Assembly: GCA_016180755.1 (NCBI GenBank)
Contig: JACPAO010000064.1
Span: 1 to 36,414, forward strand
Length of the DNA: 36,414 bases
Direction of reading: 5' to 3'
Source of the DNA: Methanobacteriota archaeon
GTDB taxonomy: Archaea; Thermoplasmatota; E2; JACPAO01
A program made the translations under genes and the position numbers. Under the pieces are notes generated by a model. It did not search any database. It was not told where the DNA came from and worked only from the letters and a program-made list of their open reading frames with translations. Below are positions 3,972-35,036 of the stretch, one piece after another (the stretch's first letter is position 1; the number at the start of each line of letters is the position of its first letter).

Positions 3972-4124
3972 GCCGCACCTTCGCCACCCCGACCGGGCCG
4001 GCGCTACATCAAATCTGCCCCCCGGCGCGTTTATTAGCCCGGCCGGCGACGCCCGGGCGGCATGCGAAGCGGTAAGCGTCCGTCCAGTCTCCTTATCTTG
4101 GGCGTACGCACTCGTCGGTCTACC

Positions 4125-13308: not shown

Positions 13309-13387
13309 GTTTTGACAGGCCCACCAACAATGCTTTAAGGCTCGGCCCGGACTGGGCTTATATACTGAGAGAAACCGGGGTCCAGTG

Positions 13388-15743: not shown

Positions 15744-15776
15744 CAATATCGATATGTGTGTCGATATATATTGACA
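15738..15776. promoter_or_regulatory. AT-rich vapBC promoter/operator with nested inverted repeats
   Basis: TGTCA(15738)...TGACA(15776), CAATAT(15744)...ATATTG(15773), palindrome ATATCGATAT (15746-15755) and TATATA. Confidence 0.6.
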
Positions 15777-15816
15777 TTTGCCCTCATCAGGGCCTCCTGG
15801 CGTACCTCGCCAGGCT

Positions 15817-16713
15817 GTGACCGCGGAATTCCCCATACGCCGTCTCCACGACGCCCTCGACGGCGCTGCCGTGCGCGCCCTCCGCCGCCAGGACTCCATC
15901 GCCATCGCGGTGAGCGGCGGGCTCGACTCGAGCATCCTCGCGGCGCTCATCGCCCAACACGCCGACGTGACCGTCCAGCTCGTCACCGTGAGCGTGCCGG
16001 GCGCCGTCGATTCGCAACGCGCGCGCCTCCTCGCCGAGCATCTGGGACGCCCTCTCCTCGAGGTCGTCATGACCGCGCCGCGCCTCGAGGCGCTCCTACC
16101 CGAGATCGTCCCCCTCATCGGAACCTCGCGCGTCGATCCCGCGCGCGCCCAGGAATGGGGCATCCCGCCGGAGAGCGCGTTCGTGAGCCCGCTTCTTACC
16201 GGCTGGGAGGTCCCGCTCTTCGTCGCGGCGCGCGAGGCGCGACCATACGCGAAGCGCCTCGTCGTGGGCCAAGGTGCCGACGAATGGTTCGGCGGCTACG
16301 CAAGGTACGCAGGCCTCGAGGGGGACGAACTCATCCTCGCCCTCGACCGCGACCGGGAGGCCCTCGACCGCGACGTCCTCCCCGTCGAGGCCCGGATCGG
16401 GAAGCACCACGCGGTCCAGGTCCACTACCCGTACCTCGACGCGGGCGTGCGCGGCGTCGCCCGCAACCTCCCCCCCTCGGCCCTCGTCGATGGCGCCGAC
16501 CGGAAGGTCGCGCTGCGCGAGGTCGCACGCATCCTCGGCCTTCCCGAGGCGATCGTCTCGGTGCCCAAGACGGCCGCCCAGTACGGCTCGGGCGTCGCGG
16601 GCCTCCTCGCGGGACTCGCGAAGAAGGCCGGCCTCCACCAGAACGAGTACCTCACGCGCATGCTCACGAGCGCAGGATCGGCGAGCTCCACGACTTCCGC
16701 ACGTAGTGCTTGA
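15817..16713 (+). CDS. Asparagine synthase C-terminal (ATP pyrophosphatase) domain protein without glutaminase domain
   Basis: SGGLDSS PP-loop, GQGADEWFGGY, YPYLD, RKVALRE and KTAAQYGSG; no N-terminal Cys Ntn domain. Confidence 0.85.
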   Translation: MTAEFPIRRLHDALDGAAVRALRRQDSIAIAVSGGLDSSILAALIAQHADVTVQLVTVSVPGAVDSQRARLLAEHLGRPLLEVVMTAPRLEALLPEIVPLIGTSRVDPARAQEWGIPPESAFVSPLLTGWEVPLFVAAREARPYAKRLVVGQGADEWFGGYARYAGLEGDELILALDRDREALDRDVLPVEARIGKHHAVQVHYPYLDAGVRGVARNLPPSALVDGADRKVALREVARILGLPEAIVSVPKTAAQYGSGVAGLLAGLAKKAGLHQNEYLTRMLTSAGSASSTTSARSA

Positions 16714-17686
16714 GCAAGGGGTCCCGCACGCGGTAGACGCCGCGGTCGGTGCGTTCGACGACGCGATGGGCCTCGACGAGGCGGCCGAGCAGGACGACCA
16801 CGTTCTTGGGCTCGAGGCCGAGCCGCTGCGCGATGACGGTGGGCGAGCTCTCGTCGTAGAGGCACATCGCGACGAAGATGTCCCGCATGAGGCCCCGGAG
16901 CGAGGCCCACGCGCCCATCGGGCCGTTGGGAAGATGCTCGACGACCTCCGCGAGGGCCGCCTCCGCCTCCGTGGCGCCAAGGTGCCGCGCGCCGGTCGCG
17001 AGGGCGCCGAGCCAGGCGGCCTCCCCGAGCCGCTGCAGGTCCGCGGGGCCCCCGCGGGAGAACTCGTAGAAGATGTCGAGGGCCTCCTCGCCCACTGCGA
17101 GGCCTGCAGCCTGGAAGCGTCGGCGCAGGAAGTCCGCGGCGGTCGCTTCGCTGAAGGGCCGAAGCGCCACCTGGGCGTCCGCGAAGGGTGCGAGGGTCGT
17201 CGCGTCCCCGGTGAGAAGGACGTGGTAGGGGAGGCGGTCGAGGAGGACGTAGATGTCGGCAAGTAGGGAAGGATCCAGGCTGGCGAGGGCGTGGGCGTTG
17301 TCAAGGACGAGCAGTCCTCGCTGGCCCTTCGCGGGAAGGGCGAGGTCGGCGTAGACGGCCCCCGGGGGCCGGTCGGGGGCGGTTGGAGCGTCGACGCCCA
17401 GCGCGGTGGCCAAGAGCCGGAAGAAGCCTGCCCTCGAGGCCGGCCAGACGCGGGAGCAGTCGAGGTGGGCGCGGGGCGAGGGCAAGGAGGGGCCGATTCC
17501 CAGGACCAGGCTCGTCAAGCCCGACTCGGGCGCGCCGGTAAGGGCGAGGCGGGCAGGCCTCCTGCCTGAAAAGCCCTGCACCAGTAGGCGCCGTTCCTCC
17601 TCGAAGCCGTACAAGTATGTTCCGGCCATGGTCGGGGGAATCGGTCCGGCGGTGTAGAAGGGGCCCTGCGTGTGGAACAACTCCAA
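16664..17686 (-). CDS. Archaeal STAND-like ATPase fold plus C-terminal winged helix, with degenerate catalytic motifs
   Basis: GPFYTAGP, LYGFEEE, Walker A GAPESGLT, Walker B LLVLDNAH, GGP, and wHTH ending GVYRVRDPLLKHY. Confidence 0.78.
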   Translation of the reverse strand: MELFHTQGPFYTAGPIPPTMAGTYLYGFEEERRLLVQGFSGRRPARLALTGAPESGLTSLVLGIGPSLPSPRAHLDCSRVWPASRAGFFRLLATALGVDAPTAPDRPPGAVYADLALPAKGQRGLLVLDNAHALASLDPSLLADIYVLLDRLPYHVLLTGDATTLAPFADAQVALRPFSEATAADFLRRRFQAAGLAVGEEALDIFYEFSRGGPADLQRLGEAAWLGALATGARHLGATEAEAALAEVVEHLPNGPMGAWASLRGLMRDIFVAMCLYDESSPTVIAQRLGLEPKNVVVLLGRLVEAHRVVERTDRGVYRVRDPLLKHYVRKSWSSPILRS

Positions 17687-17704
17687 AGTTTACGACGTGT
17701 TGCT

Positions 17705-17878
17705 TGTACTAATCGTATGTCGTATTAGTTATAAGGAATTTCGGTTCTCTCTTGAGAAAACGGTCAAACAAAAGGCGAACCTTAATCTTGTTCGCCTTCG
17801 ATTGAAGGGAATACCGGCAATCTTCCCTGGAGGGATCCCCCTTGGCTAAACCAGCTAATACGACAAAGAAATTGTACA
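17705..17878. repeat. Inverted repeat pair flanking the promoter, leader and start codon of the giant surface-protein gene
   Basis: TGTCGTATTAG (17718-17728) and CTAATACGACA (17855-17865) are perfect 11-bp complements, extending imperfectly to TGTAC/GTACA (17705/17878). Confidence 0.7.
17729..17841 (+). promoter_or_regulatory. TATA box, structured 5' UTR and SD of the giant surface-protein gene
   Basis: TTATAA at 17729-17734; hairpins AAGGCGAAC/GTTCGCCTT (17772-17798) and AGGGAA/TTCCCT (17806-17828); GGAGG at 17829-17833, 8 nt before TTG. Confidence 0.7.
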
Positions 17879-20800
17879 CAGTATTTGTAGTCGCGGCCCT
17901 GCTCGCGTCGTCAATTCTACTTATCGGCTCGGGGAACGACTCGAACGCCGTCGCCCAGACCGCCCCCGCGCTCCAGATCACTGCGCTCGACTACACGACC
18001 CTCCCCACCGAGATGTTCGGCGACGGCGCGGCCGTCCACGTCAAGCTCATCGACTCCGCCAAGGACACGACTGACCTCCCCGACAAGGTCACCGGCGTCT
18101 CCGTGAAGTCCGTGACGTCGGGCGGCGCCGCCCTCGACCCCCAGGGGGCCAGCGGAACCCCATGGACGATCGACCTCATCGAGACGGGCTACCACACGGG
18201 TGTCTTCGTCGGCTCCTTCATCGTCGCGACCGCCCCCGGCTGCACGACGCCCGGCGCCTCGCCCGCACCCCTGTGCCCGCCCGTGAAGACCCACCCCCAT
18301 TACGGCAAGATCTTCGGCGACGGCATCCTCAAGGTCGCGGCGAACGCCAAGATCACGGTCTCGAAGGACTCGCTGACAGATGACGTCTCCTGGCGGGTCG
18401 CGGACGACTCGACCGCGACGGCCGCCGTGGTCGCGCCCGTGCCGGCCCCCGCGGGCTTCCCGCCCGTCATCCCCGGGTACGGGATCCAGATCGGCTTCCG
18501 CGTCTTCGACGCCGACCTCCACGCGACGACTTCGCTCGACGTGTACCCCGCGGCCGGCGTGCCCTCGCTCCTGCGCGTCTTCTCCGACAGCGACCCCACC
18601 GGCGAAGTGGTAACGCTCGTCGAGAGCAAGGACCAGAGCGCGACCGTGACGACGCCCGTGCCGACGCCCGGCGCAAGCAAGGCCGACGGAGGCTATTTCT
18701 TCGGCACCATAGGTTTCGAGGCGAGCGCCGTGCCCGCGAACGGCAAGGTGTTCGTCCAGCATGGGGACCGCGTCCAGGCCGTGCTCACGGACCTTCGCGG
18801 CACAAACGGGCTCGCGCGCACCCTCGAGCTGCCGCGGGACCTCGTCGCCTCGTTCAATTCCTGGACCTTCCAGACGTCGAGCGAAGGAAGCGTCGGTTTC
18901 GCAGGCGACCCGTACTTCGGGGCGGACGCCGTTCCGGCCGGCGGCGACGGTTTCTTCGAGACCCAACCCGTCCTCTTCGTGTTCGACGTCGACGAGTCGG
19001 TCCAGAACGCGGGGCGCGACACCGTCGTCGTCAAGGTGACGACGACGAGCGACAGCGTGGGAAGCTGCGTCGAGCTCACCGAGCTCGGAGGGGGCAGCGG
19101 CCTGTTCTTCGGAAACTTGGTCGTCGTGACGACGGACCAGGCGCAGGTTCCAACGAGCGCCGCGAACGCCCGCCACCCGCCGCCTTCGACGCCCTTTGGC
19201 GGCGGATGCCCGAACCAAGGACCTTGGGTCCGCGCGGCGAACGGCGACCGCCTCAACGCCCAGTACACCGACCTCACGGACTTCGGCGGCGTCACGCAGA
19301 CGCGGACCGCCCTGTCCCGGTTCTTCACCGTCCAAACGGCCTGCGTCCAACTCGGCCCCGACGGATGCGCCGCCTCGACCGGCCCGACCGGCCGCCTCGT
19401 CGGCGCAACGGGTTCCCACAACGTGATCGTCGTCGACCCCGACGCGAACCTCGACCCCCTCGTCCAAGAGCAAGTCACGGTCAAAGTGAAGTCCACGAGC
19501 GATCCCTCTTCCCTCAGCGTCACGCTCACCGAGATCCCGGAGAACAGCGGTCGCTTCATCGGGAACTTCCAGTTCGGGGACTCGACCGGCGCCGGCCGCC
19601 TGCGGGTCACCGACCGGGACCAGGTCGTCGTCGAGTACGACGACGCGCGCCGTGCCGACGGGACCCGTGGGATTGTGCGCTCCAACCTGGTCACCTGGCG
19701 CGACGCGACCGACGGCCAGGTGTTCCTGGACGCGCCCTACTACGTGAAGCAGGCCACGGGCACCTCGTACGGCACGGCAGCCAACGTCATGATCCTCGAC
19801 GCCGACCAGAACGACCCCTACCTGCGCGACGTCGTGAGCGTCAGCATGGTCGACCTCGACAGTGGGCAGGGCGTCACGTACGCGAACGTGCTCGAGACGG
19901 GAATCGACACCGGGATGTTCCATGTCGAGGTCCCGTTCGGCACCGGGACCGTGGGCGGCGTTCCACGCTTCGACCCCGGCACGCTCGTCACCGACAACAA
20001 CGACGACCTGCGCGCCGAGTACTCGGACCCCGTCGCCGACGACGGGACGCCGAAGACGTTTGCGTCGCCGAACGCGAAGTGGCTCGTGGGTAGCGCTTTG
20101 AGCCGGCTGGAGACCGCGACGGGCGAGCGGCTCACCTCCATCTACATCGGCACCGCGGCCCCCCAAAGCCTCGACCTCACGGTCAAGGTGGCCGTCTACA
20201 GCTCCACGCCCGTCACGTCGATCGGCGTCCACTCCTCCCGCTGCAGCACGGACGTCCCGGTGACGCTGTCCCCCTCGGGTGACCGGTTCGTCGGCGACCT
20301 CATCCTCACCACCGACCCGGGAACCGCGGGCGACCAGGCCGCCCGGTGCACGGCGCTGCGCCAGGGCTCACCGGCCAAGCTCGGCGTGAACGTTGGCGAC
20401 GGCCAGGTCGTGCAGATCACCGGCGACACCGCGAACATCGCCGTCTCGCGCGCCCGGGCAACGACCGGCTACGACTTCCTCGACGCCTCGGGCGGCCCCC
20501 TCCTTCGCGCGTTCGGCCGCGTCGCGCCCGTTGGGCTGCGCATCGTCGGCAGCGCCCAGAACGAGGACTCCTCCGCCCGCGACGTCGGCGTCCTGCAGAT
20601 TTTCCCGCGCGGCGCGATCCTTAGCCCGGCCGATGCGGACGTCATCAACGTCGTCGCCGTGGAGACCGGCTCCGATACGAACACGTTCCTCACCTCGTTC
20701 GGTTTCGGCGCCGTCTCGAGCGGGGCGGCCCAGGTGGTTCGGGCGAACATCCCCACGACCGCCCAGGTGCCCCGGGACGTGCAGAACGGCCGGCAGCTGC

Positions 20801-23800
20801 CCGGCGCCAACATCCGTGCGAAACTCATGAACGACCCGGCCGTGGAAGGCGTATACTGGTACCCGGCGACCGACCCCTCGTTTTCCCCGACCGCGGCGGG
20901 AAGCCTCTCCGGCAAGCCCCGAGTCCGGATCGTGGACGACGAGTCGACGGGGTACGTCTTCGGCGAGACCCTCCAAGGCAGCGGTGTGGCGGCGTACACG
21001 CTGGCCTCGAGCTCCGTCGAGGCCTCCCACGTGATCGTGTCCGTGACGCGCGCCGAGACGACGCCCAGCCCAAGCGAGCACACGGTCGGCGCCGTGGCGG
21101 AGGGCTCGTTGCGGCCGATCCTCGACAGGAACCGGGACGGCGTCCTATCCTGCGCCGACGTGACCCTTTCGCCGAGCACGGCCACCTGCAGCAGCACGGA
21201 GGCCGATCTGGTAGCCGGCGTGGTCAAGTACAGCACGCCGTCGTGCACGCCCTCCTTGACGCAGCAGTGCGCTTCGTTCGAGGTCCAGTACGAATACCAG
21301 GCGATCCCGTCGACATCGCTCGCGAGCCCCAACAACGACGGGTTCCACTATCGCCAGACCCTCGCGAACCAAATCACGTTCGGCGAGGCCATCCCCACCG
21401 GCCGGACGATCTCCGTGGACTACCGTGTGACGTCCATGATGGTTGCGGTCGGAAGCGAGAACGGCGGCGAACAGGAGCAGATCCCCTTTGTCCTCATCCG
21501 CACCAACACGGCCCAGGCGAATGACCCGATGCAATACGAGGCGCAGATCACGGTCGAGGCGTTGGCGGTCGCGAGCAACCAGGCCGTCAAGGTCACCGGG
21601 GGGGCCACCACCCACCAGGACCGGCTCGTCGTGAGCTACGCCGACCCGCACATGGTCGATGGCCTTCCGGGCGTGAGCTCGTCGTCCCACTTCCGCAACC
21701 GCGTGGCGACCGTCGACTGGCTCGAGACCGAGACGGGCACGCTGTCGTTCCGCAAGAGCGACTTCAGCGGGGCGGCGCCCTCGCCGTTCTTCGGCCCCTT
21801 CGTCCCCGTGGAGGTCCGGGACCTCGACTTCGATTCGACCGGCGATCCGGACTCGTTCCTCATCACGGCCCGCAATGCCGCCAACGCCCAGGACACCGTC
21901 GCGGTCGCCGTCCGCGAGACAGGGACGCGCACAGGCCTCTTCCGCGGGCTCGTTCCGGTGGTACCTGGAACGCCGGTATCGGGTGACGGATCCATCAACA
22001 TCGCGGGCGGCTCCGGGGCCATTGTGGTCTCGTACACCGACCCGCAAAGCGTCACCGGCACGACCGTCACGCCGGCGATCAGCATCGGCTGGCGGCCCTC
22101 CGCGACCGGTTTCGTCGTGGTCTCGGGCTCCCCCGCGGTCCCTTCGACGAACCCCGGCCCGCCCGTCCCGCCGGTCACCCTCAAGGGTTCCTCGGACGCC
22201 CTCTACATCCGTGTCACCGATGGCGACCGCAACCTCGACGACAACTTCATCGACCAGCTGACGGTGAACGTGTTCTCCTTCGCCGACCCGGCCGGCGAGA
22301 CCATCACGCTCCTCGAGGACGGGCCGCGGACGAACAGTTTCGTCTCCGCGGGCGTGCGCTTCGAGACGTCGCTCGTGGCTGGCAACGGCAAGGTCTTCGC
22401 GCCCGACTTCGCGGGCGGAGGCGAGACGATCCGCGTCCGGTACGTGGATCCGCTCAACCAGGTCGGGCTGCGCGTGACGGAGGAGCCTCCCGCGACCATC
22501 TCGTGGGACCGGACCTTCGACACGCAGATCGCGTTCAACCGGGAGTTCTACATCGGGTTCGATCCCACGATTTCCCCCGACCCGAACGGGGTCCACGCGA
22601 ACACCCTCATGCAGGACGTCACCGTGCTGGTGGCGGACGGCGACCTCAATCAGCTCGCCGGCACGGTGGAGCGGCACTCGACCCGCCTCAAGCTCGGTAG
22701 GCTCGACGCGAGCGGTGAGTTCGTAGCGGGAACCGACAAGACGTTCGAGATCGTGGAGGTCGGCGCGAACACGGGCGTGTTCTTCGGCCGCGCCACCTTC
22801 AAGAACTCGGCCGCGAGCGACCCCGAGGATGCCCCCATCACGTCCACGGCCAAGACCGGCCGCGTCGGCATGACCCCTGATCTTACGAACGCGCGCCTGA
22901 GGGCCCGCGTCGTCGACGATTTCGGCGCGGCCGGCGACTCGCTGGTCTTCGTCCGGGACGCCGACTGGTTCCGTCCCGGGTTCGGCGTCATCAAGCTCGA
23001 CCGGGCCGGGTACAACGTCATCACCCAGCAGCCCGAGATCAGCGTCTGGGACGCCCACCGCGACACGGACCCCACGGGGACCGGGACGGCGGACACGCTC
23101 TCCGTCACGGTGAAGTCGAACGAGAACCCGACCGGCATCTCGCTCACTCTTACGGAGACGGCCGTGCACAGCGGCCTCTTCAAGGGCAAAGTCACGTTGA
23201 GCCAGGCCGCGACCCCGGCCGCAGGAGCCATCAAGGTCCGCAACAACGACGTCCTCCAGGCGGTCTACGCGGACCAGAACCCGACGGGCAGCCGCACGGC
23301 CTCCGCGACGATCGCGATCGGCGACACGACGCCGCCGGTAACGAGCCTCGTCACGTCCCCGGCCGTGGCCGATGGCCTGCGCGGCGTGTTCAAGACGAAG
23401 CCCTTGGTATCGTTCACGGCGAGCGAGCCCATCCAGAAGACCTTCTACCGGATCGGCACCGGCGCGACGCAGGAGTTCCCCCAAGGCGGGACCGCGTTCG
23501 AGCTCGGCGAGGGATCCCACCTCGTGAAGTTCTGGAGCATCGACTCCGTCGGCAACACGGAGGCGGACCCGAACCGCACCGTGGAAGTCGACCTCACCAA
23601 TCCGACCCAGGCGCTCTCCGGGCTCCGCGGGGCCGCGGACGCCGGGGGCAAGGTCACCCTCAACTGGACCGCGCCCGCCGCCACGACGAACCCGTTCGAC
23701 TTCTTCGAGTACGTCGTGTTCCGCGACGGCGGCGCGACGCCCCTGGGCGCGGTGTCGCAGCCGAACTTCACGGACTCGACCGTGAACGACGAGCAGGCTC

Positions 23801-25119: not shown

Positions 25120-25480
25120 CGGGCCGCGGCGTAAGCCTTAAGAGGACCCGCGCCCCCGGACCGGGGGGTATGCGGCGGTTGTTCGTCGTACGGCCGTCTT
25201 CGGACGCAAACGAATCGACCTATATACTCCCAGGGACGTTGGACACGTCCGCGCCGCCCGAGGCCGCGATGGGCCGCGTCGACGGGATAAGTATGGGGCC
25301 AAGCTTGTGCCACAACGGATTAATACGGACCTCCGTGAGGAGGGGGTTTGCCCGACGTCCGGTACGGGACGTAGGCACCAGCAACATGGGGTGCAATGGC
25401 GTGGTCGCGGTTGGATGTAGCCTGACGATGAGTGGACCCGCCCTCGCGACCCTTTCGGACACACCGCGGAGGAATGCGTA

Positions 25481-28400
25481 ATGCGACGGATCTTGGCGTT
25501 GACGTTTGTTGGAATCTTTCTTGCCTCCGCGCTCGCGGGCGCGGGCCAGCTGCGCGTCGAGGCGCAGATCCCCATCGTGAGCGACGAGTTCGAGGGCCAG
25601 ATGGACGGGATCGAGGACGCCATCGAGGCGCAGCGGCTCGCCCTCATCGCCCAGCCTCCCATCGGCGATGTCGGCAGCGCGCTGTACGTCGACTTCTTCG
25701 ACTATGATTCGGCGACGGTTGGGGGCGACTTTGACGCGGACGGACGCGACGACTTGCTTTATGGGCAGATCTTCAACGGCGACCCCACGTTCCCATCCTG
25801 TTTCTTCATTCAGACTGACTACTTCCATTCGGCGGCCACGAAGGCCAAGACGGACCAGGACCCAACAACCGGGGCCCCCGCCGCCGACCGGACCGAGTTC
25901 GCGGCCCGGATGATGGTCTACGTGAACCAAATCACCACGCCGAACGGCGCGACGTTTTTCCTCAACGACCCCGAGGATTGTACTCAGCAGGCCTTCCCAT
26001 CGATTGGAGGGAACCCCCACCAAGTCAACGTCGATGCTGTGGTCGACCCAACAGCTCAGTGTGAGACGCGCGCGACGCCGGCCGATTCGTCCGACTTCCA
26101 ACCTTGCAAGCTCCTCCAGATCTTTGACCCGACCTCGACGGGGCTCGCGGCCCAAGGCGCGTCCTCGGGCGGAAGCTCGGTGTCCACGCAGCGAACGCCG
26201 GTCACGGGCAACGTCGACACGGCCCTGTTCCAGGTTGAACAGTGGACCCGCCTGTCGGGGTCTACCAACCTTGGCCCGCACCTGGTCCTTCGCGTCATGG
26301 ATTCGCTCGTCCAGTTCTCGGCCACGGTCAATGGCGTGGGACGGCCGACCCCTGGAAGCGTTGGCGCATCCACCACCGCCCAGCCTCTATTCTCGGCGCC
26401 CTTCGATTTCTCCAACCTCCACCTACTCTGGGGCGGCAACACGGGCGACGCCCAGCTACTGTCCAACCAGCTCTCGCGCCTCGACCTCGACGACGACGGG
26501 CGCACGGCCTTCGACGAAATCGTCTCCGGCTCGAACCCGATCAATGGCCGCTCGGTGCCCGCCGACCGCGACGGCGACGGGGCTGCGAACGGGATTGACA
26601 AGTACCCCGACGACCCTTCCAAATTCCGCGACTTTGACTGGACGATCAGCGCCCTCGGGACGACGGGCATCGGCGCGGGCATCACGCAGACGACACCGGT
26701 CACCGCGACCTTGGCGGCTCCCGCCAGCCACGTGCACCTGAAGACGGTCGATGTGTACTGGGTGCGCGACCGTGGTCAGGGAGGTACAGGCATCGACCTC
26801 TCGGACCTTTCAAAGGACCTCCGCTACCTCGTCAGCTCCACAACGTGCGGGTCCCCTCACGACTGCGGCGCGCCGTCGTTCACGACGGGGTGGAAGATCG
26901 ATGATATCGGACACGTGGACGCGACTACGGGGCTTCTCACCGACCGAAGTTGTGCCGCCAATGACTGTGTCTACACAGTGCCGGACGGCCAAGACATCAA
27001 ACTGTACATCGAGATCACGGACGACGGCGTCTACGCCGGCCAGCCTGGACAGTCGCTGACAGCCATTCTCCTCGGCGCCGTGTTCCGGGTTTCGCACAAG
27101 ACCATCGGGCCGCCGAACGCGCCCTCGGTCATCTCCGTGGTAGACGTGAACGACGTCCGGGACCTCGCCGGGACGGTTTCCGACCATATTAAGGTCACCT
27201 GGACGGCCGGGACGGCGTCGCGCAGCGGCTCCGTGAACACCGTCGTCAAGGCAACGCTGTGCCCGGCGTCGCCCGCGGCGTCGCAGACGGCCCTAGCGAT
27301 TGTCAGCGGCCCAGCCAACGCGGCGAGCGGCACGAACCTCGAGACCGTCTTTGCAATCCCGCGGACGACGGCAGGCCAATTGTTCAAGTGCGTTGACTCA
27401 AATGGAAATGAAATCCTTGTCGGCGGGCAGCCCGCTCGCGGCCGGCTTGACGCCGTCGCCACGACCAGCGAGCTCATCGACGGCGTGACCCGAACGGCGA
27501 CGGACACGAAGACCGTGACGGCTTTACACAACGTGCCGCCCACGTTGAACGCCGCCACCGGCACCGGGGTCTCGGAAGTCACGCAGAATTTCGGAGGTGC
27601 AGGCCACGCCACGGTGGAGACGGCACCGATGGGCGACTCCACCGTCAGGTTCCGCGTGCTGTACAAGGACGACAACGGTGAATGCGTGAGTGGAAGCCCG
27701 GCCGATCCTGGGCCGCAATCCGTCAAGCTAATCATCACGAAAGAGAACGGCGTGACGCTGAACCCGGCCGTGGAATTCAGCATGGCCCGCGAGGTCCAGA
27801 CGAACCAGAAGGCTCCCTCCCTTTCCTTCGTGTGTCCGACCGGCGAAGATTACAAAGCTGGGGACACGCGGTTCGTCAAGGACCTGCCCGTCTCCCCCCT
27901 CAGCAAGGCGGGATTCCTTACCATCGGAAAGACATACGAATACAAGTTCCAGACCTTCGACCGTCACGGGAACGCCATGTCCCAACCGACCGGTGTTCCG
28001 ACGAGCGGGCCCGACGCCACGATTCACCTTCAACTGGTCACGCGAAACGGCGCGGCCCCCTTCACGGTCCGCCAAGACGCCGGGTCCCAGGTCAGCGGCT
28101 TCCAAGAAAGCGTCACCACGTTCCTGAAGGGCCAAGGCTGCGACCCCGCGAAACCCGCCGAATGCCCCGACGGAATCAAGGACAACGTCGAGACCACCGC
28201 CAACTGCGACCTCGACGGCGACGGTAAGGTCGGCGACAAGCCCATCGCCACGGTGCCCGGCGCCCAACCCTGCAAAGACGTCGGCACCTCCATCGTGCAG
28301 CCCATCGTCGACGGCCTCGTGGAAGACGTGACCGAGGCCATCAACGGCGCGATGACGAACGGCCTTCCGAACCCCTGGACGAGCACCCGCTGCGACCCGA

Positions 28401-30514
28401 CGAAGCCCTTCATTGGCCAGACGTGCACTGACGCCGCCGGCCCTAACCAGGACTCCGATAAGGACAGCTTCACCGACGCTGATGAAGACGCTGCCGACAG
28501 CGACCCCGCGAAGCCCAACAAGTACAACCCGTTCAGCACTCCGCTCGATACCGACGCCGACCTCTTGCCCAACCTCATGGAGAGCACCTCCCTCGAGGTC
28601 AACGTGTGGAAGATCGTCTGGGTCCGAAAGAGCGACCCCAACACCGCGTGCACGACCGCTCCCCAACCCGCCGACTGCCAGGGCGTCCTGAAGCTTCGCG
28701 ACGCCGGAACGCGAAACATCATCATCCACGGAGGCGCCGGTTCGAACCTATTCGAGATCAGCGAGACGCCGACGGACACGATGATCCTGCGCGCCAACGA
28801 AGGACGGTACTCTTGGACCCTGTTCAGCGGCGTGTTCGTCTTGACCCCCCATCCCGACTGGTTCCAACTGACGATCCACGCGGAGGACAAGACCTTGCTC
28901 TTGGATTCGATCGTCCACCTCAACAAGCTCGGCGTCGCCGGGTCGCCCGTGCTCGACGTGCGGGCTTTCGGCGCGACGGGCGACTTCGGCGCCATAACCA
29001 CTTACCACCGGGAGATTCGGTTCGAGGTCATGACCAACCCCTTCGAGGTCATGTACACCGGCAACGGACGCGAGTGCTCCACGCTTGGTTCTGGCATCCA
29101 GAGGATCGACACCTCGAGCGACTCGTCGGTTCCGCTGTGTCCGGACCAGTCCGACCGAAAGACGCTCGCCGAGCACGTCCTGGACCTGTTCGTCGGGGCC
29201 TACATCGTGAACGGGAACTCGCTCACCGAACGGCAGAACATGCCGGACGTATGCGACTACCCAGGCCCGCAAGCCAAACGGGGGACGACGCAAACGTGGT
29301 TCCGCATCGAGCGGCATGGCGACAAGCTGCGGGTCTGCGGCCAGGCCCGCGGTTCCGGCGCGAATGACCAACGGCCGTTCGGCCCGCAGGACACCGAAGA
29401 CCTCATCCCGCCCTTCGTCGGCGTCGCCGACGACGGAGGTCAGAAGAAGCTCTGGCTCGACCAGAACAACGACCGCGTCTACCAGTCCAACGAGGCCCTC
29501 GGCACGCTACCCCCGCCACCGTGCGACATCGGGAACCCGCAGAGCTGCGCCAACCCCATGCAGGCGCTGCGGACCGCGCTGCAATGCCAAGAGACTCCGA
29601 CATCCGAAGACATCGTGGTCTGCGCCCAGCGCCGCGCCGGCGAAGAGTCGAGTGCGGCACGGAAGACGGCGCGTGACAACGCTGGGTGTGGGAGCGCCCC
29701 CGACGAGGCCGCCTGCATCGACGCCAAGGCGAACGGCGCCGTCGCCGAACTCATGACGGTCGTCGGATGCGCCGGGCTCGGCCCCGACGACTGCGCCACG
29801 AAGAAAGCGACGGAAACGATTGCCCAGGCCGACGCCGCCCGAAAGACGGCCCGCGACACGGCGGGCTGTGGCACCGCCGCGGACGAAGCCGCGTGCGCCG
29901 AGGCCAAGGCGAACGAACACGCCGGAACGGTCATCACCGCCGTCAACGGAATCCTCTCGACGGCCCGAAGCGCCGCCGGGTGCGACCCGGGCGAACCCGA
30001 CGACGTCTGCGCTCAACGCCAAGCCAACGAGCAGAAGGCGGCCGTCGAAAACGTCGTGCGAGGCCCGTTGAGCTGCACGACGACGGAGACGATCGACCAG
30101 TGCGCCGCACGCCGCGCCAACGAACAGGCCGGGGCCGTCCTCACGTCCGTCACCTCCACGGTCCGTTCCGCCGCCGGCTGCACGCCTCTTGAGACGCTCG
30201 AGCAGTGCGCGGCCCGACGTGCGAACCAGGAGGCCGGCGCGGCCGTCGCGACGGTCATGGGCCTCCTCGTGGGCGCCAAGGACACCGACGGCGACGGGTA
30301 CGAGACCGCCCTAGAGCTTCAGCGCGGCTCGAACCCGTTCAACAAGGACTCGACGCCGTCCCACTCGGGCGGCGGCTTCCCGCGCGACTTCGACGGGGAC
30401 GGGTTCTTCAACGAGTACGAGCTGCAGCGGGGAAGCGACCCCAACAAGGCCTGCAGCACGCCCAGCAACCCCAACGGGGGCGTCAACAGCAACTGCCGCA
30501 GCGGGCCCTTCTAG
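25481..30514 (+). CDS. Giant 1677-aa secreted protein with FG-GAP-like and TSP3-like Ca-binding loops and Cys-paired helical repeats; no C-terminal TM
   Basis: GGAGG SD; signal MRRILALTFVGIFLASALAGA; GDFDADGRDDLL; several DxDxDG...E...GS(N/D)P motifs; seven C-x7-11-C repeats. Confidence 0.88.
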   Translation: MRRILALTFVGIFLASALAGAGQLRVEAQIPIVSDEFEGQMDGIEDAIEAQRLALIAQPPIGDVGSALYVDFFDYDSATVGGDFDADGRDDLLYGQIFNGDPTFPSCFFIQTDYFHSAATKAKTDQDPTTGAPAADRTEFAARMMVYVNQITTPNGATFFLNDPEDCTQQAFPSIGGNPHQVNVDAVVDPTAQCETRATPADSSDFQPCKLLQIFDPTSTGLAAQGASSGGSSVSTQRTPVTGNVDTALFQVEQWTRLSGSTNLGPHLVLRVMDSLVQFSATVNGVGRPTPGSVGASTTAQPLFSAPFDFSNLHLLWGGNTGDAQLLSNQLSRLDLDDDGRTAFDEIVSGSNPINGRSVPADRDGDGAANGIDKYPDDPSKFRDFDWTISALGTTGIGAGITQTTPVTATLAAPASHVHLKTVDVYWVRDRGQGGTGIDLSDLSKDLRYLVSSTTCGSPHDCGAPSFTTGWKIDDIGHVDATTGLLTDRSCAANDCVYTVPDGQDIKLYIEITDDGVYAGQPGQSLTAILLGAVFRVSHKTIGPPNAPSVISVVDVNDVRDLAGTVSDHIKVTWTAGTASRSGSVNTVVKATLCPASPAASQTALAIVSGPANAASGTNLETVFAIPRTTAGQLFKCVDSNGNEILVGGQPARGRLDAVATTSELIDGVTRTATDTKTVTALHNVPPTLNAATGTGVSEVTQNFGGAGHATVETAPMGDSTVRFRVLYKDDNGECVSGSPADPGPQSVKLIITKENGVTLNPAVEFSMAREVQTNQKAPSLSFVCPTGEDYKAGDTRFVKDLPVSPLSKAGFLTIGKTYEYKFQTFDRHGNAMSQPTGVPTSGPDATIHLQLVTRNGAAPFTVRQDAGSQVSGFQESVTTFLKGQGCDPAKPAECPDGIKDNVETTANCDLDGDGKVGDKPIATVPGAQPCKDVGTSIVQPIVDGLVEDVTEAINGAMTNGLPNPWTSTRCDPTKPFIGQTCTDAAGPNQDSDKDSFTDADEDAADSDPAKPNKYNPFSTPLDTDADLLPNLMESTSLEVNVWKIVWVRKSDPNTACTTAPQPADCQGVLKLRDAGTRNIIIHGGAGSNLFEISETPTDTMILRANEGRYSWTLFSGVFVLTPHPDWFQLTIHAEDKTLLLDSIVHLNKLGVAGSPVLDVRAFGATGDFGAITTYHREIRFEVMTNPFEVMYTGNGRECSTLGSGIQRIDTSSDSSVPLCPDQSDRKTLAEHVLDLFVGAYIVNGNSLTERQNMPDVCDYPGPQAKRGTTQTWFRIERHGDKLRVCGQARGSGANDQRPFGPQDTEDLIPPFVGVADDGGQKKLWLDQNNDRVYQSNEALGTLPPPPCDIGNPQSCANPMQALRTALQCQETPTSEDIVVCAQRRAGEESSAARKTARDNAGCGSAPDEAACIDAKANGAVAELMTVVGCAGLGPDDCATKKATETIAQADAARKTARDTAGCGTAADEAACAEAKANEHAGTVITAVNGILSTARSAAGCDPGEPDDVCAQRQANEQKAAVENVVRGPLSCTTTETIDQCAARRANEQAGAVLTSVTSTVRSAAGCTPLETLEQCAARRANQEAGAAVATVMGLLVGAKDTDGDGYETALELQRGSNPFNKDSTPSHSGGGFPRDFDGDGFFNEYELQRGSDPNKACSTPSNPNGGVNSNCRSGPF
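29560..30270 (+). repeat. Seven tandem Cys-paired helical protein repeats
   Basis: CQETPTSEDIVVC, CGSAPDEAAC, CAGLGPDDC, CGTAADEAAC, CDPGEPDDVC, CTTTETIDQC and CTPLETLEQC, each followed by an xxx(K/R/Q)ANE-like helix. Confidence 0.8.
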
Positions 30515-30529
30515 GGCCCAGGCCCGGCC

Positions 30530-30566
30530 GCGGCTCCCAAGGGACGAGCGGGAGCCGCCTTCTTTT
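30530..30566 (+). terminator. Hairpin plus pyrimidine/T tract after the 1677-aa gene
   Basis: GCGGCTCCC/GGGAGCCGC 9-bp stem followed by CTTCTTTT. Confidence 0.6.
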
Positions 30567-30691
30567 CCCCCCTTACGCCGCGGGATCGGTACCGCCGCAC
30601 AGCCCCGCCCGGCCGCTGTTTCCGCAGCAAAACCGCACTTCCTTATATGGGTCAAGGACATGCGAAACCAATTCGGGGTCGAAGGAAGGCC

Positions 30692-33610
30692 ATGAACCAG
30701 ACGTACGTCCGCGCCCTCACATTCGTAGGATGCCTCTTCCTGGCCGCCGCCCTTTTCGGCGCGAGCCCGCCGGCCGACGCGCAGTCGGCCAGCGGGGACC
30801 AGAGGATGAGCGACGGGTCCCGCACCATCGACCAGACGGGCCTGCTGAACCCCCCCGCGAAGTCCCTCAGCGGCCTCGTGGACAACACGTTCCGCGGGAC
30901 GTACTCGCCGAGCGCCACGGGGACGCTCGACCAGGAGGCGACGCTCTTCTGGACCCTCGACGGCACGAACCCGGGATCCGGGACGACGACGAAGAAGGAG
31001 ATCTCGTGCGTAGGGGCGCCCTGCGTCCCGGGCCAGTTGGAGTACAGCGGAGCCCTCACGGCGACCGACTTCGCGGCGGCCCCGCCGAACGCCGAGGTCC
31101 GCTTCATCCTCCAGATCCGCGATGCCGCGAACGCCAACGTCATGTGTGACCCGGTGCCGAACGCCGTCGCCTGCCCCGCGAGCGCGGGCACGTACTACTT
31201 CTACCGCATCGACCGGACCAAGCCGCTCGTCGATGCGGCGGCGGCCCTCCCGGCGAAGGTCGCGGGCTCCTCCGTCGATGCCGGCATCACGACGGACGAC
31301 CGGACGCCGTTGCGGTTCGTCCTGCGCGACGACAACCGCGAGCAGCCCCTTAACGGCACGGCGGCCGCCACGGCGATCACGGTCGACGGCGTCGACAACA
31401 CGGCCCTGTTCAAGCGGACCGACCTCACGCCGCACGCGTTCCAGTTCGACTTCGACTACACGAAGGTCTCGGCGAGCTTCAAGTGGAGCCACCAGCCCCA
31501 CAAGATCGTCGTCACGGGCAAGGACCTCGCGAACAACCAGGTGGACACGGCGAAGAACAGCTTCACGTTCCACGTCGACACGACGCCCCCCACCATCCCG
31601 GCGACCGCCATCACGGCCGTACCGAACGCGGGCCTCCCGGGGTCGCAGACGCAGCTTCCCATCACCGCGCGCGGCGTGAACGTGACGGTCAAGTCGGACG
31701 TCACCGACGTGAGCCTCGACACAAACTCGAAGACGAACGTCTTCGCGCAGCACTTCAACGCGACCGTCGGCGCGGTCTCGCCGCTCTTTCCCCTCACCTA
31801 CAACCCGACGAGCAAGCTGTGGGAGTCGACGGGCGTGACCATCCCCCTCACGTGGCCGGCGCAGGAGTTCCGTGTCCACACGCGGATCATCGCGACGGAC
31901 CTCGCCGCGAACGTCGGGTTGAACGTCACGGCGAAGGAGCAGTTCATCATCGACCCGATCCCGCCCTCCGTGACGGAGGCCCCGCCACCTCCGAGCTTCA
32001 TCCTCGACAAGGACTACAAGGTCCGCGCCACGATCAAGGACGGGACCGGCCTCGACACGAACAAGCTCCTCGTCCGGTTCAGCAACACGACCGGCGGGTT
32101 CAAGGCCGCGCTTCCCGCCTCGGTGACGAAGATCAACCAGAACACGTTCGAAGGGAAGATGGCGCGGGAAGGCCAGACCGACAACTGGACGTTCACGATC
32201 CCCGCGCCCAAGCCGGACTCGGTCATCACGTACTTCGTGAGCGCGACGGACAAGGCGGGCGGCGTCACCAACACGACGCTCCGGACCCTCACGGTCGACA
32301 CGAACGGCCCGCTTCTTGCCGAGGTCGACGCGAAGACGTTCCGCGCGGGCGAACCCTACGTGTTCACGGTCACGGCCACCGACGCAGGCATCGGCGTGAA
32401 CGCCTCCACGGTGAAGCTCTTCTTCGCGACCTCTGGGACGACGTTCTCCCCCCTCCCCATGGCGCAGGTCGGCACGACCTCGACCTTCACGGGGACGATC
32501 AGCCAGGCCGTCGCGGACGCCACGACGATCAAGTACTACTTCGAGGCGTTGGACCTCCTTGGTACGAAGGGGATGCTCGGCGAGCCGACGGGGGACAAGC
32601 ACCGGAACACGACCGTCGACAAGTCGCCCCCCACGACGCTCCAGCTCACGGCGCCCGCGAACGCGACCACGACGACGTTCCCGGTCAAGTGGAACGCGAC
32701 GGACGCAGGTAGCGGCGTCGCGAGCTTCACGATCCAGGCGCGGCTTGCCGACCCCGGGAAGACCCCCAGCATCTGGGTCACGTTCCTGAACGCGACCACG
32801 CTCCGCGAGACGGACTTCTGCGGCGAGGGCAACCACACGTACGAGTTCCGGGGCTTCGCGACCGACAACGTCTCGAACAGCGCGCCCGTCCCCACCGCGG
32901 CCCAGGCGACGACGGTCGTCACGGGGGCCGGCTGCCCGGAGGGCGTCGTCGTCGCCGTCACCTTCCCGACGACCGGGACCCGCGTCGACAACGCGCAGAC
33001 GACCCGGACGCTCCAGGTGCGCTACACGGCGGCCCCCACGCGCGGCCTCACGCCCGCCTCGGAGCTCAAGGTCCGCGTCCTCTACAGCCCCGACAACGGG
33101 GTCCACTTCTTCGAGCTCGCGAAGGACCTTTCCAACACGGGCTCGTATTCGCTCGACGTCGCCTCGCTCCCAAGCTGCAAGGCCTGCCTCGTGCGCGTCG
33201 AGGCCACGACGCTCTCGGGCGCGACCGCAAACGGCACGAGCGGCGTCTTCGTCGTCGCGGGCGGCTCCGCCACGGCCGACCTCGACGAGAACGGCCTCGC
33301 GGACTCGTGGGAGACGCGGTACGGTTCCCGGCTCGGGGAGATGGAGGCGGACGCGGACACCGACGAGGACGGCCTCTCCAACACCGACGAGGCGGCGGCC
33401 GGCACCGACCCCAACAACGCGGACACCGACGGCGACGGCTTCAGCGACCGGCTCGAGGTCCGAAGCGGCACGAACCCGCTTAGCGCCACGAGCGTCCCGA
33501 CGCCCGAGCAGGCCCGCTCCGAGCAGTTCACGCACTGGTACTGGAGCGTGCCCGCCCTGTTCCTCGTGACGGGGGTCCTCTTCTTCGTGGGCCTTGCGCG
33601 GAGGTGGTAG
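30692..33610 (+). CDS. 972-aa membrane-anchored surface protein with Ig-like domains and TSP3-like Ca-binding repeats
   Basis: Signal peptide; repeated ATD.AG(N) and VDTTPP Ig boundaries; DLDENGLADSWE, DTDEDGLSNTDE...GTDP and DTDGDGFSD.LE...GTNP; C-terminal TM then RRW. TTATAT at 30643. Confidence 0.88.
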   Translation: MNQTYVRALTFVGCLFLAAALFGASPPADAQSASGDQRMSDGSRTIDQTGLLNPPAKSLSGLVDNTFRGTYSPSATGTLDQEATLFWTLDGTNPGSGTTTKKEISCVGAPCVPGQLEYSGALTATDFAAAPPNAEVRFILQIRDAANANVMCDPVPNAVACPASAGTYYFYRIDRTKPLVDAAAALPAKVAGSSVDAGITTDDRTPLRFVLRDDNREQPLNGTAAATAITVDGVDNTALFKRTDLTPHAFQFDFDYTKVSASFKWSHQPHKIVVTGKDLANNQVDTAKNSFTFHVDTTPPTIPATAITAVPNAGLPGSQTQLPITARGVNVTVKSDVTDVSLDTNSKTNVFAQHFNATVGAVSPLFPLTYNPTSKLWESTGVTIPLTWPAQEFRVHTRIIATDLAANVGLNVTAKEQFIIDPIPPSVTEAPPPPSFILDKDYKVRATIKDGTGLDTNKLLVRFSNTTGGFKAALPASVTKINQNTFEGKMAREGQTDNWTFTIPAPKPDSVITYFVSATDKAGGVTNTTLRTLTVDTNGPLLAEVDAKTFRAGEPYVFTVTATDAGIGVNASTVKLFFATSGTTFSPLPMAQVGTTSTFTGTISQAVADATTIKYYFEALDLLGTKGMLGEPTGDKHRNTTVDKSPPTTLQLTAPANATTTTFPVKWNATDAGSGVASFTIQARLADPGKTPSIWVTFLNATTLRETDFCGEGNHTYEFRGFATDNVSNSAPVPTAAQATTVVTGAGCPEGVVVAVTFPTTGTRVDNAQTTRTLQVRYTAAPTRGLTPASELKVRVLYSPDNGVHFFELAKDLSNTGSYSLDVASLPSCKACLVRVEATTLSGATANGTSGVFVVAGGSATADLDENGLADSWETRYGSRLGEMEADADTDEDGLSNTDEAAAGTDPNNADTDGDGFSDRLEVRSGTNPLSATSVPTPEQARSEQFTHWYWSVPALFLVTGVLFFVGLARRW

Positions 33611-33613
33611 TCG

Positions 33614-34204
33614 GTGGAACGCACCGCCCTCCGACGCTCGGCGAGCGTGTTCTTCGGGATCGCGATCCTCGTCGTCCTTTTCAGCGCCTACGTGGCCCTC
33701 GTGTACCACGGCGACATCGACGAAGGCGCCTCGTGGGTGGTCGACCTCGACTTCGATGTGTGGATCTCGATCTTCGCGGTGACGCTCGCCGTCATCTTCG
33801 CGGTCCTCTTGATCATGTTCCTCGTGCCGGCCTCGACGGGCGGCGGCCCCGCGCCCGCCCCGCCGACGGGCACGAGCGTCGTGCGCATCGACTGCACGAA
33901 CTGCCACCAACTGTACGAGATCGACGACACGGGCGAGCGCCCCCTCTTCCACACGTGCCCCCACTGCGGCTTCGTTGCCGAGATGGGCGGCGAACCGACC
34001 GCCGCGAGCGCCCCGGCGCCCTCGGCCCCCGTGCCCTCGGCGACGGCCACGACCGATGAGAAGGGCCCGATGGTGATCCGCTGCGGCAACTGCCAGACGA
34101 ACTTCGAGGTCCCGTTCACGACGGAACGGCCGCTCGTGACCGTCTGCACGAACTGCGGCCGCCGCGGGATCCTGAACGCGCCCGCCGCCGAGGCGTCCGC
34201 GTAA
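33614..34204 (+). CDS. 2-TM membrane protein with two cytoplasmic zinc ribbons
   Basis: Two TM helices, then CTNC...ERPLFHTCPHCG and CGNC..NFEV...ERPLVTVCTNCGRRGIL; starts 3 nt after the upstream stop. Confidence 0.88.
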   Translation: MERTALRRSASVFFGIAILVVLFSAYVALVYHGDIDEGASWVVDLDFDVWISIFAVTLAVIFAVLLIMFLVPASTGGGPAPAPPTGTSVVRIDCTNCHQLYEIDDTGERPLFHTCPHCGFVAEMGGEPTAASAPAPSAPVPSATATTDEKGPMVIRCGNCQTNFEVPFTTERPLVTVCTNCGRRGILNAPAAEASA

Positions 34205-34216
34205 TCCGCGGGGACC

Positions 34217-34759
34217 TCACAGCCGGCGTCCGCGCACCCACGGTTCGTCGACGGGCACGAACACGAGGCCCGCCTCCACGAGGGGCAACGCGACGGTCCC
34301 TGCGATCTCGAGGAACCAGCCCGACTGGCCCGTGAACGTCGCGTTCCCGGTGAAGTCCGATCCCGTGTAGTGGAACTCGTCGAAGAAGTCCGTGTCCTGC
34401 GTGATCTCCTCCGGCCAGGCCGTCGCCGTGTAGAGGACGGCCGCGAGGCCCAGGGCGGCCGTGAGGACGCAGGCGCCCACGACCTGGCCGCGGGTGGCGG
34501 CCCGGCCGATCGTGGGAAGGAGCTCGAGCACGAGGGTCGCGAGGGCGGCCGCGGCCGCGAGGGTCGCGAGGATGCCGGTGAACAGGACCTCGTCGGAGAG
34601 GACGTCGCGGTCGGGCTGGTCGGCGAAGTCGCCCGCCCGGTAGGGCGCGACGGTCTCGGAGACGCCTTGGCCGAAGATGTCGAAGCGGACCTCCCACCAG
34701 GGAAGCCACAAGGCGGCGAGGGCGAGGAGGAGGGCGAAGCCGAGGATGCCGATGCGCAT
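34217..34759 (-). CDS. Multi-pass membrane protein (TM-PWW-loop architecture), hypothetical
   Basis: GGAGG adjoining ATG 34759; MRIGILGFALLLALAALWLPWW, an extracellular loop and three more hydrophobic segments, the last after SGWFL. Confidence 0.75.
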   Translation of the reverse strand: MRIGILGFALLLALAALWLPWWEVRFDIFGQGVSETVAPYRAGDFADQPDRDVLSDEVLFTGILATLAAAAALATLVLELLPTIGRAATRGQVVGACVLTAALGLAAVLYTATAWPEEITQDTDFFDEFHYTGSDFTGNATFTGQSGWFLEIAGTVALPLVEAGLVFVPVDEPWVRGRRL

Positions 34760-35036
34760 CCTCCGAGGTCGGCTGAGGAGTCGAGGTTGGAAGGCCATTT
34801 CCCGCGGCATGGCCTGGCCGCTTTTAGGTTGCTCCGATGCGCTCCCGGGGCGCCTCCCGGCGGGCGCGCGTCGCCGGGCCGCCTGGAGCTCAGGCAGGGC
34901 CGGCATTTTTCACTGTTGTCTTTTCGTTGGTATGAATAACATGACAAACATTACAAGAAAAGTAATATCAGAAATGGCACGGGCGGGCGCAACGGGCTCC
35001 GCGACGCTGGCCGGCGCGTCCTCCTCCCGGAAGCGC

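Follow-up and report, generated by a model that had tools for sequence, protein, structure and literature searches.

The stretch of DNA described here, referred to as the window, is the entire 36,414-base contig JACPAO010000064.1 (assembly GCA_016180755.1; G000:C2) of a Methanobacteriota archaeon that GTDB places in the Thermoplasmatota (E2, JACPAO01). The genome, G000, is 2.31 Mb and 75% complete, and the GC content of the window is ~68%. Six of its genes, P0001 to P0006, encode three large surface proteins, two smaller membrane proteins and one ATPase/winged-helix protein. The region is considered a variable surface-protein island whose place in the genome is fixed, with an asparagine-synthase-like gene on one side and the gene for ribosomal protein S6e on the other. 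The island would be made up of two conserved two-gene units (P0001/P0005 and P0003/P0004) and lineage-specific cargo, with zinc ribbons that act in docking; the probability given to this reading as a whole is about 0.55. The features of the locus are as follows.

16664-17686, minus strand: P0005, 340 amino acids (aa), archaeal-ATPase-type AAA+ core and C-terminal winged helix, with a degenerate Walker A.
17687-17841, no strand: divergent intergenic region between P0005 and P0001, AT-rich, with the TATA-like TTATAAGG; sequence read directly.
Within 17687-17841: putative ribosome-binding motif GGAGGGAT, 8 nucleotides (nt) ahead of the P0001 TTG start.
17842-25119, plus strand: P0001, a 2425-aa type-I surface protein with a TTG start and a zinc-ribbon tail.
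24547-25116, plus strand: anchor module of P0001, composed of an FN3-like domain, membrane helix, basic stop-transfer stretch, acidic linker and terminal C4 zinc ribbon.
24856-24912 and about 25009-25116, plus strand: membrane helix and zinc ribbon of P0001, the latter ending in GILR-COOH.
25481-30514, plus strand: P0002, a 1677-aa secreted protein without an anchor, with TSP3-type calcium loops and Cys-rich helical repeats.
30647-33610, plus strand: P0003, a type-I surface protein of 987 aa (972 aa from Met16 at 30692).
About 33278-33487 and 33542-33598, plus strand: three TSP3 repeats and membrane helix of P0003, whose C-terminus is RRW.
33599-33616, plus strand: P0003/P0004 coupling junction, CGG AGG TGG TAG TCG GTG, with GGAGGTG at 33600-33606.
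33614-34204, plus strand: P0004, 196 aa, two membrane helices, zinc ribbons at about 33878-33985 and 34070-34174.
34217-34906, minus strand: P0006, 229 aa, four membrane helices.

The positions and sizes of the six open reading frames (ORFs) are as described in an earlier note on this DNA, and their GC content at third codon positions is 0.84-0.94 throughout. A hydropathy scan bears out the topology assigned there. A signal-like helix at the N-terminus is seen in P0001, P0002 and P0003; P0001 and P0003 also have one C-terminal membrane helix, which P0002 lacks. P0004 and P0006 have two and four helices, respectively. The description of large secreted or anchored surface proteins is supported, and the folded, inward-facing zinc-ribbon module is real and conserved. 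The same note had the ribbon common to all three giants. Instead, one ribbon lies at the C-terminus of P0001 and two lie in P0004, with none in P0002 or P0003. Calcium loops, also said to occur in all three giants, are present in P0002 and P0003, where TSP3_bac is above its cut-off; P0001 has one weak DRNRDG motif and no TSP3 match.

Each of the six proteins was searched against 40 relatives plus G000, giving 41 genomes. The relatives are draft genomes with contig breaks beside these repetitive genes, and related genomes are non-independent samples. P0006 is matched in six of the 41 genomes, never on the contig of the cluster. S6e lies directly 3' of the P0004 homologue in G002 and follows P0006 in the window; P0006 is therefore an extra gene in the conserved flank and is unrelated to the surface-protein units. 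P0002 has no true homologue in the 40 relatives: three genomes match at E <= 1e-5, its own included, and the two foreign matches cover only the TSP3 end. In the same-genus genome G001, which keeps four of the six genes in order, the P0003 homologue directly follows the P0001 homologue with no P0002 between them. The spacer at that point in G001, when aligned with the spacers of the window, has no similarity beyond the coding end. In G003, the slot upstream of P0003 is occupied by an unrelated 1791-aa secreted protein, which has only TSP3-type stretches at both ends in common with P0002, and the locus is without P0005 and P0001. The upstream asparagine-synthase-like gene is common to G000, G001 and G003.

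These comparisons bear on the proposal, made in the earlier note, that all six genes together encode a single S-layer or adhesion apparatus of several components, with a signalling module that faces inward. The genes that suggested it are co-oriented and include three large surface proteins, the TSP3 calcium loops of P0002 and P0003 could mediate assembly, and order is kept for four of the six within the genus. Co-conservation in relatives had been set beforehand as the test, and it is found for two gene pairs only. A six-gene unit is not supported because P0006 is at the locus in no relative, P0002 is absent even from the same genus, and the G003 locus has neither P0005 nor P0001. No S-layer family signature is seen either. 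Such an apparatus is very unlikely.

P0002 is, on this comparison of sequences, a lineage-specific occupant of a hypervariable slot. The protein contains six D-x-[DN]-x-[DN]-G motifs, with loops near both ends, and matches TSP3 at 26.4 bits (cut-off 25). It has 42 cysteines and zero N-x-S/T sequons, and the GC content of its region (25000-29000) is about 0.645, compared with about 0.69 around it. The low GC, the lack of sequons and the many cysteines would be compatible with recent acquisition or fast turnover. As a matter of speculation, P0002 may be held on the surface by calcium-dependent TSP3 contacts with the anchored proteins.

The first conserved unit is composed of P0001 and P0005. P0001 is made up of a signal-like helix, eight ETGxxSGxF-type repeats, an OmpL47-like/Ig-like region, an FN3-like domain, a membrane helix and the zinc-ribbon tail. 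The repeats, which the earlier note had rightly pointed out, are eight copies of the motif E-[TILV]-[GPA]-x2-3-[STG]-[GN]-x-F. They match no Pfam family in a scan of ten slices of P0001. Residues 330-760 gave low recognition in the ESM Atlas, with unnamed clusters only; a SlaA-like cluster at 0.80 is at chance level. Orthologues of P0001 are encoded in G001 (3042 aa) and G005 (2484 aa).

The C-terminal module of P0001 is found throughout the order. Sixteen giants of 1235-3042 aa from 11 genomes of the order have it in common (alignment A1). It runs from an FN3-like domain through a membrane helix, a basic stretch and an acidic linker of variable length to a terminal ribbon. The ribbon consensus, present in 16/16 tails, is CPxC..F..G..P....CPxCG..G, usually followed by x-L-x and the stop. 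Eleven positions of A1 are invariant (C161, P162, C164, F168, G172, P175, C180, P181, C183, G184 and G187). The P0001 tail has the spacing CPQC-x17-CPNC, scores 17.6 bits with Zn_ribbon_4 and shares 47% identity with the second ribbon of P0004. A Trp occupies one aligned linker column in 12 of the 16 proteins, often as Y-x-W followed by acidic residues, and is absent from P0001.

A tail model built from the 16 A1 tails was run on 301 genomes of the phylum. All five genomes of the order that have no row in the model match it at E <= 1e-30, G014 matches at 4e-20, and G002 at just 1e-8. The best E-value outside the order is 8.7e-17. At E <= 1e-4, 180 of the 301 genomes match, small ribbon proteins included. 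Of the 150 matches listed, more than 30 come from other families and fall within open frames of at least 1000 aa. Two or three zinc-ribbon-tailed giants of 1235-2252 aa stand in tandem in G015, G028, G009 and G012 (L028, L031, L032 and L033), with tails alike and ectodomains that differ. G000 itself encodes a second giant, C67 (L048:6465-10592, plus strand), a 1375-aa protein with PKD domains and the FN3-like/membrane-helix/zinc-ribbon module. In C67 the ribbon is not terminal; a DUF4332/helix-hairpin-helix domain (41.9 bits, cut-off 23.2) comes after it. P0015 and the P0004-like proteins of G002 have this extension too.

The position of the ribbon allows for a role in biogenesis. In this alternative, the ribbon is a fast-folding plug that fixes the type-I orientation, or a mark for an insertion or quality-control factor. 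Its place at the extreme C-terminus, after a basic stop-transfer stretch, in proteins of 1235-3042 aa would suit such a device. P0004, however, has two ribbons and no large ectodomain to orient, and 11 invariant positions are far above the need of a plug. The alternative is quite unlikely.

P0005 is encoded divergently from P0001. The AlphaFold2 model has a predicted local distance difference test (pLDDT) of 82 and a predicted template modelling score of 0.77. Its best Foldseek matches, both over the full length, are 2qen (E 3.7e-11) and 2fna (E 2.8e-10), followed by Orc1/Cdc6 and RuvB. Template modelling scores (TM-scores) normalised to query length are 0.65 for 2qen and 0.61 for 2fna. These entries are PAB2304 and SSO1545, respectively; like P0005 they have an AAA+ core followed by helical and winged-helix parts, as expected of the ATPase/winged-helix protein proposed earlier. 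We know of no function for either. The only Pfam match of P0005 is AAA_22, at 23.7 bits and under the cut-off of 27.

The nucleotide site of P0005 differs from those of PAB2304 and SSO1545. Walker A reads GAPESGLTS, with leucine in place of the lysine, and Walker B reads LLVLDN, with DN rather than DE; neither has the intact GxxxxGK[ST] or hhhhDE form, which agrees with the pseudo-ATPase described before. Walker A is intact in G001 (GPAASGKTS), has Arg for Lys in G022 and is degenerate in G034. Since the motif is altered in the window, G022 and G034 and intact in G001, of the same genus, the site is decaying in some lineages. The C-terminal half of P0005 is the better-conserved part.

Seven of the 41 genomes have a P0005 homologue. 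In five of these, from three families (G000, G001, G005, G022 and G034), the gene adjoins and is divergent from a zinc-ribbon-tailed giant; the weaker homologue of G006 has other neighbours. P0005 is most likely a transcription regulator of the divergent giant gene, acting through its winged helix, and the 17687-17841 interval would, to judge from its sequence, have promoter function. In this first unit, then, the giant P0001 would be held in the membrane by the order-wide anchor with its cytoplasmic C-terminal C4 ribbon, and P0005 would act on transcription of the giant gene.

The second conserved unit is composed of P0003 and P0004. P0003 possesses Ig-like, Big_13 and fn3-like domains, 16 N-x-S/T sequons and three D-x-[DN]-x-[DN]-G motifs, and matches TSP3 (PF18884) at 61.0 bits, above the cut-off of 25. 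It is matched over most of its length in G000, G001, G003, G002, G005 and G007, which are all of the sampled genomes of families f1 and f3. In other genomes, the listed matches cover only the TSP3-plus-membrane-helix end. At 7/7 loci with a P0004 of f1/f3 type, the gene just upstream of it, on the same strand, is of P0003 type; these loci are those of the six genomes and the metagenome contig L047. A profile search with alignment A5 returned only the two loci already known among genome contigs and one further short contig among metagenome contigs.

The junction between the two genes is tight. In the window, GGAGGTG is part of the last three P0003 codons (Arg-Arg-Trp), which precede the stop; between the stop and the GTG start of P0004 there are 3 nt, as the earlier note had read it. 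This layout, with GGAGG inside the last P0003 codons and a spacer of 2-3 nt, is kept at 7/7 loci. In L047 the last P0003 residue is His, and GGAGG is still present. GGAGG pairs with the 3' end of 16S ribosomal RNA; that end was not found in this 75%-complete genome. GGAGG motifs also stand 7-8 nt ahead of the P0001 and P0002 starts, so the organism appears to use such motifs. From this and from general knowledge, GGAGG at the junction is taken as a putative ribosome-binding motif.

Conservation is also seen around the membrane. The juxtamembrane residues of P0003 and its terminal RR[W/H] are conserved. The short outer loop of P0004 (YHGDIDxGA) is nearly invariant in close relatives, and positions Y26, A28, L29, Y31, G33, D34, G38 and A39 are invariant in A5. 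By positive charges, both ends of P0004 and the end of P0003 are cytoplasmic (P0004 N-in/C-in). Conserved residues thus occur on both sides of the membrane, which fits a contact, and P0003 and P0004 most likely associate through their membrane segments. Prediction of a complex between the C-terminal 140 aa of P0003 (A2) and P0004 (A3), run without controls, gave a score of 0.25 (mark 0.32). A diverged analogue of the pair exists in family f2, where G004 and G029 encode a smaller TSP3 protein ending in ARRWAL or GRWGA, followed by a diverged gene with two membrane helices and two zinc ribbons.

P0004 is a helical hairpin with two ribbons. In the AlphaFold2 model (pLDDT 78), the helices span residues 2-32 and 47-70 and the linkers are disordered. 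Each ribbon has four strands; the two occupy residues 89-124 and 153-187, where the mean pLDDT of 10-residue blocks is 82-90. The ribbons are spaced CTNC-x17-CPHC and CGNC-x17-CTNC, and both P0004 and P0001 show the MJ0042-type pattern of CxxC, ~19 residues and CxxC. Zn_ribbon_4 (PF13717) matches P0004 at 27.7 bits, under the cut-off of 30.3, and no window protein matches TIGR02098 (NCBIfam) at E <= 0.01. PF27353 appears in the precomputed Pfam listing for the P0004 of the window. At E <= 0.001, the 14 members of the P0004 family have matches to Zn_ribbon_8 (12), HypA-like (12) and Zn_ribbon_4 (5); for the 16 P0001-type tails the numbers are two, none and one, respectively.

Members of the P0004 family are widespread. 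At E <= 1e-3, 32 of the 41 genomes match, ribbon-only matches inside giant ORFs counted. Among 1.84 billion representatives, a profile of the family matched 347 proteins at E <= 1e-3, of which 16 reach E <= 1e-30. Many of the weaker matches fall at the C-terminus of single-pass proteins, which are about 1000-3400 aa long. In 8/8 of those fetched, the cytoplasmic tail can be aligned with the tandem ribbons of P0004 (residues 72-193), and the ectodomains are unrelated to P0003. The tandem-ribbon module is thus fused to surface proteins elsewhere and separately encoded here.

The surroundings of P0004 homologues vary among families. On the f2 contigs L015, L016, L017, L022 and L038, the homologue lies just downstream of an ORF of ~960-1010 aa, an adjacency that looks conserved and is functionally puzzling. 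These upstream ORFs of ~1000 aa were considered as distant P0003 relatives, and the idea was rejected; the four tested are pyruvate phosphate dikinase. In both f3 genomes, the P0004 homologue is immediately followed by a gene for a conserved protein (L023:8587-9540 and L024:2309-3346, both minus strand). A Pfam scan of the G005 copy (L023) matched Bactofilin at 55.5 bits (cut-off 27.9). This bactofilin-type neighbour might be related to what the ribbons dock to.

In the second unit, the glycoprotein-like P0003 stops right after its membrane helix, in RRW, and would be translationally coupled to P0004. The two proteins would be made together and associate by their membrane helices and juxtamembrane segments. 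As a pair they would be a two-chain version of the ectodomain/membrane helix/zinc ribbon design that P0001 has in one chain. P0001 carries one ribbon in its own chain, and P0004 would give P0003 two cytoplasmic ones in a partner chain.

Several observations weigh against this reading of the island. The gaps between P0001 and P0002 (361 nt) and between P0002 and P0003 (132-177 nt) hold TATA-like elements, so the three genes are probably on separate transcripts. P0005 homologues occur in only 7/41 genomes though zinc-ribbon-tailed giants are order-wide, which means that the regulator is not needed for such genes generally. The giants paired with P0005 homologues in G022 and G034 have only the C-terminal module in common with P0001. 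Physical binding of P0003 to P0004 is a prediction from gene layout and conservation. Foldseek returned no row at E <= 0.001 for the P0004 model, and no significant solved structure. The ribbons of P0001 and P0004 score below curated Pfam cut-offs. In f2, the P0004 homologue is downstream of pyruvate phosphate dikinase (4/4 upstream genes tested), so the P0004 family can work without P0003. Finally, some relatives have a DUF4332 helix-hairpin-helix domain after the zinc ribbon, and these extensions could point to nucleic-acid binding over protein docking.

The main rival is a neighbourhood without a function in common. The locus would then be a surface-gene hot spot, P0004 would be stand-alone, and its position after P0003 would be inherited synteny. 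This account draws on the order-wide P0004 family with its dikinase neighbour in f2, on the hypervariable slot upstream of P0003, and on flanks (Asn_synthase and S6e) that are conserved while the content between them changes. It has to contend with the 2-3 nt spacer and GGAGG within the last P0003 codons, kept at 7/7 loci in two families, with the second, diverged example of the pairing in f2, and with P0004-type tandem ribbons fused to surface proteins elsewhere. Overall it is a possible but doubtful explanation.

The DUF4332 extensions lead to another alternative, in which the ribbons bind nucleic acid and either tether DNA or RNA to the envelope or are released by proteolysis as a signal. 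DUF4332/HHH_5 follows the ribbon in 2/14 P0004-family members and in the C67 giant, and relatives are named 'predicted nucleic acid-binding Zn-ribbon protein' in one source, which is an automatic label. P0001 and P0004 of the window, however, have no helix-hairpin-helix domain, their linkers are strongly acidic, which is unfavourable near nucleic acid, and the characterised membrane-tethered ribbons bind proteins. Nucleic-acid binding as the function of these ribbons is improbable.

Membrane-tethered cytoplasmic zinc ribbons that dock proteins are known from bacteria. According to PMC11135422, the ribbon of ZitP docks PopZ, and that of GltJ docks its own linker and MglB. The likeness to the ribbons of the window lies in a small C4 ribbon, a flexible linker, a cytoplasm-facing position and CxxC-x17-19-CxxC spacing. 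ZitP (Caulobacter) and GltJ (Myxococcus) differ in that their ribbons are N-terminal, ahead of the membrane helix, and their outer parts are small. In the archaeal proteins described here, the membrane helix comes before the ribbons, which are located at the C-terminus or close to it, either in giants or in a separate protein with two helices. Among the first Foldseek rows of the P0004 model is the ZitP zinc finger 2nb9 (E 0.46, rank 6, probability 0.82, target-length TM-score 0.50 over 46 columns), and the domain is too small for significance. Because the GltJ ribbon binds a motif in its own linker, the conserved linker Trp of the A1 proteins may, by analogy, be a ribbon contact site.

An archaeal comparison is offered by CdpC of Haloferax volcanii. 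As described in a preprint (bioRxiv 10.64898/2026.07.16.738847), CdpC is a double zinc-ribbon protein whose ribbon ties FtsZ1 to the membrane, and its authors report remote multi-zinc-ribbon relatives in all Thermoplasmatota classes. Compared by that description only, CdpC resembles P0004 in being archaeal and membrane-associated and in having two zinc ribbons. It differs in its amphipathic helix and 243-residue linker, where P0004 has two membrane helices. G000 also encodes C122 (L049:5090-7237, plus strand), a soluble-type protein with four consecutive CxxC...CPHC ribbons, a long Lys/Ala/Pro-rich tail and a Zn_ribbon_FGT1_2 match at 48.5 bits. Set against the same description alone, C122 looks nearer than P0004 to the relatives of CdpC.

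TMEM55B, a eukaryotic lysosomal protein, is alike in combining a two-helix hairpin with tandem cytosolic zinc modules that recruit adaptors, as given by Foldseek row titles. Its tandem zinc domains are among the first rows for the P0004 model at E 0.13, which is not significant and makes this an analogy only. The zinc modules of TMEM55B precede the helices.

Archaeal S-layer glycoproteins (Haloferax csg/PGF-CTERM class) are similarly large, with a signal peptide, sequons (16 in P0003) and a C-terminal membrane anchor. The proteins of the window differ in having a folded cytoplasmic domain, in the same or the partner chain. P0001 ends in its membrane helix and zinc ribbon, P0003 in its membrane helix and RRW, and P0002 is unanchored. 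A Pfam and NCBIfam scan of the window proteins found no PGF-CTERM or other sortase-type signal and no S-layer family match, and sequence searches of the PDB with P0001, P0002, P0003 and P0005 returned zero matches each. To this extent, no described surface complex matches.

The locus is most likely, by analogy with these systems, one of membrane-tethered zinc-ribbon docking modules on archaeal surface proteins, present in the same chain or supplied by a translationally coupled adaptor. Because the membrane-tethered ribbons of ZitP, GltJ and CdpC bind proteins, the ribbons here would most likely be docking knobs that tie the surface proteins to a cytoplasmic partner.

A wider reading is a phylum-wide transmembrane coupling. 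The tails and the P0004 adaptor would dock giant adhesins to a cytoplasmic scaffold (FtsZ/CdpC-like, bactofilin or another filament), as a counterpart of focal-adhesion/integrin-type links. Many archaea of this phylum are without a rigid wall. Wall-less cells of the Thermoplasmatota type would in this way position or mechanically couple their adhesins, and P0004 would let tail-less proteins use the same scaffold. This extension is unlikely.

The region is set among archaeal housekeeping genes, namely those for ribosomal protein S6e, a D-aminoacyl-tRNA deacylase of archaeal type and a class I tRNA synthetase of Trp/Tyr type. The asparagine-synthase-like gene (15778-16713) and the 3' end of P0005, on opposite strands, have ~50 nt in common. 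Outside the cluster there are two PIN-domain genes (15124-15777 and 35543-35887, both minus strand), the first just upstream of the asparagine-synthase-like gene. Two further proteins, of 462 aa (4062-5450, plus strand) and 577 aa (13385-15118, plus strand), have C-terminal HTH_HVO_0163_N and winged-helix domains in common and long N-terminal parts without a family match. The stretch occurs, whole or in part, in three DNA sequencing runs of one groundwater study, one of which is possibly the source of the window; among the runs listed for it, none is on record as RNA.

Full-text literature searches, whose scope stopped at the extended data of the CdpC preprint, where relatives of P0004 or C122 are possibly listed, turned up neither an account of archaeal surface proteins with zinc-ribbon tails in the cytoplasm nor one of an adaptor like P0004. 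The terms zinc, transmembrane and surface protein are all absent from a 2025 paper on Thermoplasmatales cell surfaces. This locus adds a separately encoded ribbon adaptor and the pairing of a giant with a regulator-like gene. The analysis also corrects the notion that six genes form one machine; left standing, that notion would mislead annotation. A conserved cytoplasmic knob is a usable bait for finding what the archaeal cell surface is wired to, and a test of binding should be straightforward to plan, given the split and fused forms of one design and the tight coupling junction.

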